From IMG/VR virus record IMGVR_UViG_2541047433_000013: a stretch of DNA of 4,106 bases; one strand, written 5' to 3'. The notes beneath the pieces are model-generated. The model did not search any database. It was given only the letters and a program-made list of their open reading frames with translations, and had not been told where the DNA came from. Positions 1 to 4,106 of the stretch are shown one piece after another; positions within the stretch are counted from its first letter, which is position 1, and each line of letters opens with the position of its first letter. The DNA is from a virus (lineage: Duplodnaviria; Heunggongvirae; Uroviricota; Caudoviricetes). A program made the translations under genes and the position numbers.

Positions 1-85
1 GGTCTTTCCTCGTTACCAGTGCCGTCACTATGACGGTTAAACAGATGACGATCAGGGCGATTAACATCGCCTTTTGCTGCTTCAT
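1..85 (-). CDS. hok: Hok/Gef-family type I toxin, 5' portion only (28 N-terminal codons; gene continues past the left edge)
   Basis: Reverse complement of 1..85 translates to MKQQKAMLIALIVICLTVIVTALVTRKD with ATG at 85..83. From memory this closely matches the N-terminal transmembrane region of HokD/RelF and Gef. AAGGAG Shine-Dalgarno at 100..95 sits 9 nt upstream of the ATG. Not in the ORF track because it is partial. Confidence 0.8.
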   Translation of the reverse strand, partial: MKQQKAMLIALIVICLTVIVTALVTRKD

Positions 86-1159: not shown

Positions 1160-1181
1160 CCGCCCTTTCGGGCGGCCTCCT
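1160..1181 (-). promoter_or_regulatory. Structured translation-initiation region: AGGAGG Shine-Dalgarno, then a 6-bp G:C stem with GAAA tetraloop, then UAAGAA-AUG
   Basis: In RNA sense: AGGAGG (1181..1176), CCGCCC-GAAA-GGGCGG (1175..1160), UAAGAA, then AUG (1153..1151). Read directly from the sequence. Confidence 0.35.
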
Positions 1182-1276: not shown

Positions 1277-1588
1277 TTATGCTTCGGCCTTATTTCTCAG
1301 CCATACACAAACAGGACCATCTTCGGTGTCATGTATCGAACCGATAAACCATCCCTCACCTTCTGGTCGCTCAGGTTCCCATGCTGAAATATCAGGGCCA
1401 TCTGCGTCCAGATTAAAATCATCTTCATCCATACTACGGATAGCCCACTGAAGATTATTTTTCTCCATCCAGGCGTTAAACTCTTCCGTTGAAATATATT
1501 CCCGACCATCACAGAATTTTTCATATTCAGGATGCGTCCAGCAGCCATATTCATTACGTTCCACTGGCATTTCTTTAATTACGCTCAT
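1277..1588 (-). CDS. Hypothetical phage protein, 103 aa, acidic and Trp-rich
   Basis: ORF in the track. The ATG at 1588..1586 overlaps the TGA of the upstream small ORF (ATGA). A G-rich Shine-Dalgarno (AAGGGGGG) lies immediately upstream. No family recognised. Confidence 0.7.
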   Translation of the reverse strand: MSVIKEMPVERNEYGCWTHPEYEKFCDGREYISTEEFNAWMEKNNLQWAIRSMDEDDFNLDADGPDISAWEPERPEGEGWFIGSIHDTEDGPVCVWLRNKAEA

Positions 1589-1737
1589 TTACCCCCCTTA
1601 TTTAATTTTCTACGACACTTTTTACAATCATCTGGACTTTCGAATGTATCCGGCTCACGCTCATTGCCAAAATACATCCACCCACCGCAAATACTTGTTA
1701 TTTCACCTTCAGCAAAATAATGATGTTTTTTCGCCAT
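1585..1737 (-). CDS. Small Cys/His-containing protein, about 50 aa, possible metal-binding mini-protein
   Basis: The track ORF 1585..1773 starts with GTG. I prefer the internal ATG at 1737..1735 (MAKKHHYF...), which is preceded by AAGG. The protein has HH near the N-terminus and three Cys (ICGG, DDCKKC). Its stop overlaps the next start by 4 nt. Confidence 0.45.
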   Translation of the reverse strand: MAKKHHYFAEGEITSICGGWMYFGNEREPDTFESPDDCKKCRRKLNKGGK

Positions 1738-1769
1738 AAGTGGCCTTGCCCAGCCCGGATTCGTTTTAC

Positions 1770-2126
1770 TCACTTGTTGCCTCCTTTGCGAAGCTCTGCG
1801 ACTAACTCGTCACATATGTGCGTCAAAGAGCAAAGTTTGATTGCTGGATGTTCGCGCACCATCTCCACACCCTGCGCCCGCAATTCTGCCAGAAAAGCGT
1901 AGGGGTCAGTTTTTTCACTGTGGTACATGGCATCATAGATAATCATTGCAGCGACACCTGCCTGTCCTGCATCTGTGACGGATATATGCTCAAGGGCTAC
2001 GGCCATTGCGTGTTTCAACCTCTCATTTTCCACCTCAAGCACCACACGATTAGCCTCCAGCTCTTCTATGCGTTTTTTTGCTGCTCCCAGCTCAACACGC
2101 AGCTCCTGATAGTTAATCTCGCTCAT
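1770..2126 (-). CDS. Hypothetical phage protein, 118 aa, with a probable coiled-coil N-terminus
   Basis: ORF in the track. The ATG at 2126..2124 overlaps the upstream stop (ATGA). GGGAGG lies 7 nt upstream. The N-terminal 40 residues are rich in E/L/K/R with a heptad-like pattern. Confidence 0.65.
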   Translation of the reverse strand: MSEINYQELRVELGAAKKRIEELEANRVVLEVENERLKHAMAVALEHISVTDAGQAGVAAMIIYDAMYHSEKTDPYAFLAELRAQGVEMVREHPAIKLCSLTHICDELVAELRKGGNK

Positions 2127-2347
2127 TCTCCTTCCTCCCGCACTGCTGTTTTATATGCCCGAAGCACATGCGATGTTTTTCCTGACACAGTGCTTCTCAG
2201 AAAGAAAATTCCACTGGTGTTTATTACCAGATACGGGTCAGCAAGACGCAGCATATCCAGTATGTGATTATGTTTTCTTGTTTCCAGCACCGTACTTGAA
2301 ATAAGCATATGTGACACGGGGCCGAAATCATGATATCTGATTTTCAT
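2123..2347 (-). CDS. Hypothetical phage protein, 74 aa
   Basis: ORF in the track with ATG at 2347..2345. AGGGTG Shine-Dalgarno about 6 nt upstream. It sits 21 nt downstream of the preceding gene's stop and its own stop overlaps the next start. Confidence 0.55.
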   Translation of the reverse strand: MKIRYHDFGPVSHMLISSTVLETRKHNHILDMLRLADPYLVINTSGIFFLRSTVSGKTSHVLRAYKTAVREEGE

Positions 2348-2368: not shown

Positions 2369-3079
2369 TTACCCGTTATCTCCTGTCGTTATTTTCTGTA
2401 TGACATCACGATGCTTATTAATTTCCCGCAGCGCGGCGCATAAGCGCTCCCACTTCTGAACCTGACCTTTTGCCCGGCGCAGCTCGCGGTTAGCCACATG
2501 CAGCGATGGTAAAATCAGACCATCCGGATGCTTTCTGATGAACGACGACTGTGACTGCACTGTGACCGCCACACTTTCCGTTTTTATTTCTTCCTGTGTT
2601 TCCGCTTCCCGGACTGGTAACGCAACACCTGCTGGCTGAGGAAAGGCTTTACCATCCGTTTCCGTTATGGATGCGGCTTTCGGCTCTGCCGGTAAATTAT
2701 CGCCCGGTATGCAGTAACGATATTTACCGTCCTGATTCACGCGAATCAGACGCCCTTTGCTGACAGCCATCGCCAGTGATGAATTCGCCCGGCGGGAGGT
2801 AATCCCGAACATTAGCGCCAGTTCGTCAGCCGTTTGTGGGCCATGATGTTCAATCGCCTCAGTCAGCATTTGCGCTGTCACTTTCGGTACCGGTGACACT
2901 GGTTCACTTTCACCAGTCTGAGTCAGCCACCACATCGACCCCTTGTTATCCGCTTCACCACGGCGCTTCAGTTTCCACAGTTCGTTGACAGCATCTTCGC
3001 GGCTGATTCCAAGGCGCGATGCCACTACCTGTGAAGAGGCTTTTTTCAGTGCTTTCAGTGCGTCAAATACGGTTTCCAT
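2369..3079 (-). CDS. Tandem winged-helix phage protein, about 236 aa (DUF1627-like), in the position lambda ren occupies after P
   Basis: The track ORF starts with TTG at 3097. I prefer ATG at 3079..3077 (METVFDALK...), which has GGAGG 8 nt upstream. Two segments look like winged-helix HTH units ([10 protein letters not shown]...[10 protein letters not shown] and [10 protein letters not shown]...[10 protein letters not shown]). DUF1627 assignment is from memory. Confidence 0.75.
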
Positions 3080-3112
3080 TAATATTTCCTCCGACAAAAT
3101 CGTTTCTCAGAT

Positions 3113-3775
3113 TCAAATAAAACCAGCTGCCTTCCGGCGTTCGTATTCCTGTTTCAGCCGTTCAATTGGCGTTGGCCCTTGCGGGTGTTTCGCCCCTTCC
3201 AGTTGTCGTCGCACTGGCGGAACACTCATCCCGTTACCAACATGCTTTGCCCATTTCGTCAGTTGCCGTTCCGCAAGTCGTTTTAACTCACCTTGCGTCA
3301 TCTGGCGCTCAATCCCTCTGGTACGCATTTCGAGGCAGATGTGGTACAGCACAGGCTGTGGCCACGGGTATTTATCACTCCCGTCGTATCGCCAGGATTC
3401 ATTGCGCCAGCGCCGGTACTCTTCCATCACGGCATCCACCGTAAGACCAAATGGATTTGCCCCACTCTCCGAAATCAGCGCAACAAACTCAGCCAGGTCC
3501 GGGGGCCACGTTTCACCCGCCCGGCAGCGGTCCATGCACTGACGGCACACCAGACGGATTTGCTGTTCAGTCATCGCACCAATCTGGGCAATCCAGAGCT
3601 TCGAAGGTGCGGCCCCGTTCTTCTGAGTCCAGCGGTTCGAATACACCTCCCCCATGAGCTCCCACAGCTTCCAGGCCGTTTCCGTTGCTGATAAATCCGT
3701 TGTCACGTTCCCACTGTTCGCGTGCAGCCCGGATTTCCTGAACTGCCCGTGATGCCGTGCCACCTGATGCTGCAT
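3113..3775 (-). CDS. Lambda-P-like replication protein (DnaB helicase loader)
   Basis: ORF in the track. The C-terminal half aligns by eye with lambda P as I recall it (conserved YPW, ELRR/ELKR and PVxxQL blocks; MTEQQ versus TMEQV). AAGGGGGG Shine-Dalgarno 5 nt upstream of ATG 3775..3773. Alternative starts are ATG 3655 and ATG 3574. Confidence 0.8.
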   Translation of the reverse strand: MQHQVARHHGQFRKSGLHANSGNVTTDLSATETAWKLWELMGEVYSNRWTQKNGAAPSKLWIAQIGAMTEQQIRLVCRQCMDRCRAGETWPPDLAEFVALISESGANPFGLTVDAVMEEYRRWRNESWRYDGSDKYPWPQPVLYHICLEMRTRGIERQMTQGELKRLAERQLTKWAKHVGNGMSVPPVRRQLEGAKHPQGPTPIERLKQEYERRKAAGFI

Positions 3776-4106
3776 GGCTTCCCCCCTTGCTGACTGGTTT
3801 TACCTGTGCCCTGACGTGCTGCACGTGGCGGGCAAATTTCTGCTCCCACTGAACCTGCGTGAAAACCTTCCCCTCCGCCATCCAGTAATCCCGGAATGCG
3901 GCAAGCTCAGCAGGTGTAAATTCCGGCTCAGGCAGAGCCATACCCCACACTGCTGCCCGTTGTCGAAAATCCGGCGACGGCTGCCAGACAGTAGTCATCG
4001 AAAATTTCCCGATCGGTTCGCTCAGGCCGTCCAGGTATTCAGGTTCGGCTGTCTGCAACGGCGCACCATTCGACTCACTGGTCGGAATACTCTCGCGCGC
4101 GTTATG
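3567..4106 (-). CDS. Replication initiator with a DnaT-like domain, 3' portion (reading frame open to the right edge, so the N-terminus is outside the window)
   Basis: The track ORF 3567..4058 begins at a TTG, but the frame stays open through 4106. The segment GKFSMTTVWQPSPDF...YWMAEGKVFTQVQWEQKFARHV resembles the C-terminal domain of E. coli primosomal protein DnaT (GKFAMYPDWQPDADF...[22 protein letters not shown]), recalled from memory. Confidence 0.8.
   Translation of the reverse strand, partial: HNARESIPTSESNGAPLQTAEPEYLDGLSEPIGKFSMTTVWQPSPDFRQRAAVWGMALPEPEFTPAELAAFRDYWMAEGKVFTQVQWEQKFARHVQHVRAQVKPVSKGGSHAASGGTASRAVQEIRAAREQWERDNGFISNGNGLEAVGAHGGGVFEPLDSEERGRTFEALDCPDWCDD

Follow-up and report, generated by a model that had tools for sequence, protein, structure and literature searches.

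The four small genes at positions 1277–2347 of the DNA analysed here (a stretch of 4,106 nucleotides, called the window below) are real and are likely to be independent accessory genes, the short overlaps that join them representing the ordinary packing of a nin-type region. The genes, designated A, B, C and D, assort independently of each other, and overlaps of the same kind are generic to the places where their homologues are found. The block is a nin-equivalent region, since it is located between the replication genes (DnaT-like O, P and DUF1627) and hok, DUF968, RusA and Q; the early-right operon to which it belongs is that of an E. coli prophage of Rac/lambdoid type (O157:H7 type). The genes, their junctions and their immediate neighbours are arranged as follows:

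2369–3097, minus strand: DUF1627 gene, the upstream neighbour in the same operon (PF07789, E=1e-78; so annotated in identical genomes)
2123–2347, minus strand: gene A, an ORF of 74 amino acids
2123–2126, minus strand: A/B junction, ATGA, in which the stop codon of A overlaps the start codon of B (direct sequence reading)
1770–2126, minus strand: gene B, an ORF of 118 amino acids
2097–2110, minus strand: deletion scar in B, with the junction between 2105 and 2104, where 309 nt (103 codons) were lost in frame; a short CTGCGTG repeat is present
1770–1773, minus strand: B/C junction, GTGA, in which the stop codon of B overlaps the GTG start of C (direct sequence reading; the N-terminal extension is conserved)
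1585–1773, minus strand: gene C, an ORF of 62 amino acids from GTG, or 50 amino acids from the ATG at 1737
1585–1588, minus strand: C/D junction, ATGA (direct sequence reading)
1277–1588, minus strand: gene D, an ORF of 103 amino acids
935–1153, minus strand: DUF4014 gene, the downstream neighbour (PF13198, E=1e-24)

Every gene in the whole window is on the minus strand. Gene A follows the end of the DUF1627 gene after 21 nt, and D is separated from the DUF4014 gene by a 123-nt spacer containing a GC hairpin. The initial annotation described four ORFs packed head to tail with 4-nt overlaps at all three joints, which the sequence confirms. It read all three as ATGA; this is correct for A/B and C/D, but the B/C joint is GTGA, a small correction. 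A plausible Shine-Dalgarno sequence was noted for each of the four genes and is found there: GGAGGAAGGAG for B, AAGGAGG at 1780–1786, 6 nt before the GTG, for C, AAGGGGGG at 1592–1599 for D, and AGGGTGA, weaker than the others, for A.

Over positions 1200–2420 the window shows 100% identity with an E. coli O157:H7 prophage, and 332 complete genomes hold at least 80% of this segment. In these E. coli O157:H7-type genomes A, B, C and D are all annotated as “hypothetical protein”. Throughout the O157 lineage A–D are passed on together. In NZ_AP018488, where the prophage adjoins tRNA-Ser and mtfA, a single strand carries Cro/CI, YdaT, DnaT-like O, P, DUF1627, A, B, C, D, two hypothetical genes, hokD, another hypothetical gene, DUF968, RusA and Q, a gene order that bears out the nin-type placement of the block, after the replication genes and before those of late control. 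A genuine toxin-antitoxin locus, hok/sok, is located further downstream. The sibling prophage of EDL933 has the same frame, an early-right operon running between the replication genes and Q.

The window itself is a mosaic. Positions 1158–2420 match the NZ_AP018488-type O157:H7 prophage, and positions 1–1158 and 2424–4106 resemble a different O157 prophage, from EDL933; the breakpoints relative to EDL933 are at the start codon of D (1587/1588), at 2424 (the 3' end of the DUF1627 gene) and at about 1158. One IMG/VR contig (L009) matches the entire window at 98.3%. A consensus scan, which cannot prove absence, gives five promoter-like sites against 4.8±2.2 expected, and the one terminator-like site, against about four expected, is outside the cassette. 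An Rfam scan finds no RNA family inside the four-gene cassette.

In all lambdoid phages the packing of the nin region is exceptionally tight, and ATGA motifs are numerous among its genes (PMC8022706). The present block resembles the lambdoid nin region (ren-ninA..ninI-Q in lambda; the nin genes of P22/L) in its distal position in the early-right operon, from the replication genes to RusA/Q late control, in its small, non-essential-looking genes with exceptionally tight ATGA stop/start overlaps, and in the mosaic exchange at gene boundaries. It differs in that A–D have no Pfam match to any named Nin family and in that the replication module is of the Rac type (YdaS/YdaT, DnaT-like O, P, DUF1627) as opposed to the O/P/ren module of lambda.

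The main evidence for independence comes from the neighbours of the homologues. Locus scans were centred on C and D, the alignment of the A family being too diverse for one. All four genes occur together in 16 of 83 D-centred loci, representing the closest 80 of 508 relatives in IMG/VR, and there exclusively in a near-identical E. coli lineage; because these loci are the closest of the 508, and because IMG/VR contigs are short, the co-occurrence statistics are approximate. A C homologue is present in 53 IMG/VR loci, and A, B and D go with it only in those where the identity of C reaches 97% or more. Homologues of C with 64–78% identity are placed in unrelated neighbourhoods, including Mu-like phages, where they lie by gemA/mor-type genes, and D accompanies C in one of these neighbourhoods. 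When the immediate neighbours are clustered, C (42 non-redundant contexts) has at least nine partner families on the upstream side and at least 14 on the downstream side, and D (67 contexts) has at least six upstream and at least nine downstream. Of the 64 D contexts with an upstream ORF, only 14 have C in that position. In nearly every non-redundant context of a C or D homologue there is a 4- or 8-nt overlap with the upstream gene, whatever that gene is.

Other rearrangements of the block are seen in individual prophages. In the EDL933 sibling the slot from DUF1627 to D is occupied by a 93-amino-acid HTH protein and a 75-amino-acid A-like protein (38% identity), replacing A-B-C, and A-like genes can lie right next to D where B and C are missing. 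The gene boundaries are fluid as well: one homologue (P0170) is a fusion of A and B, another (P0203) joins an Ead/Ea22 N-domain in frame to the GTG of C, and a third (P0081) is a chimera of the N-terminal half of D. Since overlaps of 4 or 8 nt are the rule in such regions, independent of the partner, they are uninformative about this particular set of genes. The reading of the ATGA joints as a sign of special co-regulation is therefore not upheld, the overlaps being generic to these regions and kept with any partner.

B is the coiled-coil protein that the initial annotation noticed among the four. It is what a deletion has left of an Ead/Ea22-like gene, the conserved N-terminal domain being lost. 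The full-length relative, a 221-amino-acid protein (P0168), scores 120.7 bits on PF13935 and is encoded at the same position in a sibling prophage (L133), which carries the same A, C and D genes. B corresponds to residues 1–10 and 111–221 of P0168 with 98% identity, and the DNA of the two loci, one 309-nt gap aside, is 99.5% identical (window 2368–1277, minus strand, compared with L133:2757–4159); it is this near-identity, interrupted by one in-frame gap, that identifies B as a deletion remnant. Of the conserved N-terminal domain B keeps only the first ten residues (MSEINYQ.LR), and it retains the coiled coil and a lineage-specific C-terminal domain. A search of complete E. coli genomes found no gene for full-length B at 80% coverage or more; such genes are found in draft assemblies only.

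By itself, B scores 18.1 bits against PF13935, below the cut-off of 27, with profile positions 75–138 of 139 matched; its link to the family is common descent from P0168, a bona fide PF13935 member. It is named “eae-like protein” by NCBI. Ea22 of lambda contains a short N-terminal domain, a coiled coil and a variable C-terminal domain, and is tetrameric and pro-lysogenic (PMC10834534). The coiled coil and C-terminal domain of B fit this architecture (PMC10834534), while B differs from the Ead/Ea22-like proteins (PF13935; lambda Ea22, P22 Ead/Eae) in the missing conserved N-terminal domain, in the sub-cut-off Pfam score and in its location in the early-right operon rather than the exo-xis region. 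No sequence match was found to the solved C-terminal domain of lambda Ea22 or to any other PDB chain. The description of the four as uncharacterised small accessory genes is accurate as to their being small, non-enzymatic and functionally uncharacterised, but B is now placed as an Ead/Ea22-like (PF13935) deletion remnant.

C is the small Cys/His protein of the set, as had been noted. Its length of about 50 residues holds for the ATG at 1737 used by PGAP, but the GTG at 1773, giving 62 residues, is the better call and corrects the PGAP start. The GTG is favoured because the GWARP motif preceding PGAP's ATG is conserved in 16 homologues and Met14 is not, and because the homologues have an ATG or GTG start codon at the corresponding place. 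The exact 62-residue form has been deposited from 699 contigs and the 50-residue form from at least 1000. C matches phrog_2358 over residues 1–60 (E=1e-31). The alignment of 16 homologues shows the invariant residues H17, H18, C29, C50 and C53 and the motif REPDTFESPDDC. The protein is basic, and its family is rare and restricted to Enterobacteriaceae, with three species representatives only in a scan of genome contigs.

The His/Cys ligand pattern suggests zinc binding, and C, a basic His/Cys mini-protein, is probably a one-zinc finger. The CxxC where a basic C-terminal helix begins may form a single zinc site together with one Cys and one His of the preceding hairpin, and the best guess from the residue pattern is a zinc-finger-like binder of nucleic acid or protein. 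A marginal similarity to BPTI/Kunitz proteins (phmmer E=0.05) was judged to be due to chance, as C contains three cysteines versus six in Kunitz proteins, with different Cys spacing. C is also unrelated to the 50-amino-acid CxxC protein that is the commonest gene before D (hhalign probability 0.4%).

The AlphaFold2 model of A (pLDDT 89.9) has a bba-bba topology and matches ACT domains, with 8–15% identity to the fold matches. By this model A shares the fold of ACT/permuted ferredoxin-like domains such as the aspartokinase regulatory domain and the permuted BMC shell proteins. The predicted permuted ferredoxin/ACT-like fold is a generic one, which does not assign a function, and A has no Pfam or NCBIfam match, hence neither membership in an ACT sequence profile nor a ligand-binding motif. 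The family is basic, with a median pI of about 10, and its relatives amount to 21 representatives among 1.8 billion proteins. The model suggests that A is probably a dimerizing binder of a ligand or nucleic acid.

D is widespread, with 160 homologues across Enterobacterales and the IMG/VR relatives mentioned above. The isolated phages that carry it number 57 and are those of Escherichia, Erwinia, Klebsiella, Yersinia, Pseudomonas, Burkholderia, Vibrio and Acinetobacter; the annotation is hypothetical in every case. The protein is strongly acidic (pI 4.2, net charge −16), and so is the entire family (pI 4.05–4.76, net charge −9 to −22). Its model (pLDDT 86) contains two helices, a three-stranded sheet and an acidic linker, and matches no known fold. 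Longer homologues from Parlo and PEp14, considered as domain-fusion (Rosetta-stone) hints, have no Pfam domain, and a relationship of D to the DUF551 protein next to it is rejected (hhalign probability 0.1%).

DNA mimics such as Ocr and ArdA are acidic phage inhibitor proteins. D resembles them in being small, early-expressed by position and uniformly very acidic, which is an analogy only. The family might be a stand-alone inhibitor, a decoy or DNA mimic with a fold not found in the PDB, directed at host defence or a DNA-binding protein, the other three genes being unrelated to this role. The very acidic character of the whole family, the strong purifying selection (dN/dS 0.06–0.12), the presence in many unrelated phage types and hosts, and the small single domain of no enzymatic or known fold encoded at an early-expressed position agree with such a role. 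Acidity alone is weak evidence, however, and neither sequence nor fold similarity to Ocr/ArdA-type proteins, nor to any known anti-restriction or anti-defence protein, was detected; this explanation is rather unlikely, though it fares better than those considered below. The best guess, by analogy, is that D may act alone, binding and blocking a basic, possibly DNA-binding, protein of the host or of a rival phage. The functional suggestions for A, C and D derive from fold, charge or residue patterns only.

The proposal that the four genes form one functional module, for example a heteromeric host-takeover or anti-defence complex with subunit ratios set by ATGA translational coupling, is very improbable. 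Stop/start overlaps lead to termination-reinitiation coupling in E. coli (PMC6728339), and genes encoding the subunits of heteromeric complexes in general show a statistical enrichment of short overlaps (PMC10666635). Owing to this enrichment (PMC10666635) coupling could still matter for some pair, and three consecutive 4-nt overlaps with Shine-Dalgarno sites, as well as the intact state of the block in more than 300 O157-type genomes and in the sibling prophage with full-length B, would be in keeping with a module. For a translationally coupled complex the subunit genes are expected to be adjacent in diverged relatives, and here they are not: the genes occur together in a near-clonal lineage only, the more distant homologues of C and D have many other neighbours and overlap with them in the same manner, B lost its conserved domain and its neighbours were kept, and A-like genes can abut D without B or C. 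The initial annotation, which put forward a module with co-regulated stoichiometry, had named beforehand a lack of conservation as a unit as an observation that would speak against it. The module reading fails because the genes are not conserved as a unit.

Even less credible is the idea that one or two adjacent pairs (the 74- and 118-amino-acid proteins, or the 62- and 103-amino-acid proteins) are small toxin-antitoxin-like pairs. The gene sizes and tight coupling do resemble those of type II systems, and each pair consists of one basic and one acidic partner. Unlike type II toxin-antitoxin systems, the genes show no conserved pairing, C-D and A-B each having many alternative neighbours, they contain no recognizable toxin or antitoxin domain, and they are located in the middle of an operon, with hok/sok as the genuine locus of this kind further downstream. 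None of Pfam, NCBIfam and PADLOC yields a toxin-antitoxin or defence family, the proteins show no recognizable DNA-binding antitoxin fold, and promoter-like sites are no commoner than expected by chance. The lack of conserved pairings, of toxin-antitoxin or defence domains and of a promoter signal disfavours both this and the module explanation, and the suggestion of toxin-antitoxin-like pairs is not sustained.

Pfam and NCBIfam profile searches and PADLOC return nothing for A, C and D, and PADLOC assigns none of A–D to a catalogued defence or anti-defence family. The earlier remark that no enzymatic domain is recognizable agrees with the Pfam, NCBIfam and PADLOC searches. PDB sequence searches give no significant match for any of the four proteins, and a literature search by their RefSeq and UniProt accessions retrieved no papers. 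All four match PHROG families, A phrog_1001, B phrog_492 and phrog_368, C phrog_2358 and D phrog_1372, every one of them listed as “unknown function”.

All four families are under purifying selection, and A, B, C and D are on this ground real genes. By the Nei-Gojobori method, in comparison with diverged homologues, dN/dS is 0.06–0.12 for D, about 0.2–0.3 for A and 0.25–0.45 for B; for C it is 0.05 at unsaturated dS, and elsewhere pN is 0.12–0.28 against saturated pS. Coding signatures in relatives, which the initial annotation had asked for, are thus present in every family, with pN below pS. That some of the ORFs are spurious, with no protein product, as could be imagined from their shortness, their “hypothetical” annotation, the missing Pfam domains and the different starts that PGAP and other gene callers assign to C, has a negligible probability, being already refuted by substitution patterns with pN well below pS in every family and further contradicted by conserved motifs in homologues across genera, confident AF2 models and PHROG families for all four.

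Taken as independent genes packed in a nin-type region, A–D would work in the following way. They appear to lack a promoter and a terminator of their own, and their transcripts would come from the Cro-side early promoter by read-through, once induction or infection has taken place. Translation would proceed in a relay, with ribosomes re-initiating at the overlapping ATGA or GTGA, helped by the Shine-Dalgarno sequences within the 3' end of the upstream gene. Each of the four proteins would then act singly. The overlaps are no sign of a protein complex; they are the usual joints that lambdoid phages use in packing and exchanging small genes.

The array is of an already-known kind, a textbook case of lambdoid nin-type packing, and its sequence is present in hundreds of O157:H7 genomes under the name of hypothetical proteins. 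The modest by-products of the analysis are the corrected start codon of C, the recognition of B as an Ead/Ea22-like remnant and two confident fold predictions. The D family, being acidic, strongly conserved, widespread and of no known fold, is the component worth testing for a host-directed or anti-defence role.

In relatives of the four small minus-strand genes A–D (74, 118, 62 and 103 aa), the boundaries between genes are fluid, as seen in the fused or chimeric proteins P0170, P0203 and P0081. Gene A and a full-length B are fused in relatives into a single 296-aa protein through a changed length of the G-tract at the A/B junction (2127-2140). A 168-aa relative carries C joined in frame, at its GTG, to an Ead/Ea22 N-domain, and in another protein of 168 aa an unrelated C-terminal half is attached to the N-terminal half of D. 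Other features of the window are:

2097-2110, deletion scar in B, from comparison with L133:3001-3666
1737-1773, alternative starts of C, ATG 1737 (RefSeq/PGAP) versus GTG 1773
1161-1176, minus strand, GC hairpin CCGCCCGAAAGGGCGG in the D–DUF4014 spacer
80-254 and 1-85, minus strand, hok/sok-type type I toxin-antitoxin, from Rfam RF01794 and a Hok/Gef coding sequence

Gene B is a shortened form of the 221-aa Ead/Ea22-like gene of a sibling prophage (L133), lacking 309 internal nucleotides in frame; the flanks of the deletion are 99.5% identical and a short CTGCGTG repeat is present at its breakpoints.

In RefSeq/PGAP, gene C is a 50-aa frame. That the gene starts at the GTG, which gives 62 aa, is indicated by conservation of the GWARP motif, by a Shine-Dalgarno sequence that is a perfect AAGGAGG, and by the GTGA overlap; the ATG start is probably a systematic mis-annotation across hundreds of genomes. 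Protein C shows a weak phmmer match to the Kunitz-type bovine pancreatic trypsin inhibitor (E about 0.05, 47 residues), which is attributed to chance, since C contains just three cysteines and their spacing is unlike that of Kunitz domains.

A further tight joint within the operon is the overlap of O and P, where the DnaT-like O gene is overlapped for ~200 nt by the longest P-like ORF, of 220 aa (P-like ORF at 3113-3775, O at 3567-4058, minus strand). The RefSeq P has 153 aa and overlaps O by 8 nt.

Inside the 123-nt spacer, a few bases separate the perfect hairpin from the start codon of DUF4014, which lies downstream of it. The 151-nt stretch shows better folding than shuffled sequence does (z=-3.0). 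Since the hairpin lacks a T-run after it, it is not a classical terminator. At the window start, the sok model scores 113.5 bits, and the Hok/Gef coding sequence, starting near base 85, is cut off by the window start.

Two O157-type prophages have recombined to give the window: its flanks are EDL933-like (96-99%), its centre is identical to the serU/mtfA prophage, and the breakpoints, at 1158, 1587/1588 and 2424, lie at or near gene boundaries. None of the complete E. coli genomes in the collection carries the entire window contiguously at a coverage beyond roughly 80%; the IMG/VR contig IMGVR_UViG_2541047432_000013 matches all of it at 98.3%.

In D-centred loci of related prophages, such as L072 and L101, C is not the gene that most commonly precedes D immediately; this position is occupied by a 50-aa CxxC protein in 23 of 64 contexts and by a 74-aa protein in 16. 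Around D, one and the same small accessory-gene pool is reshuffled.
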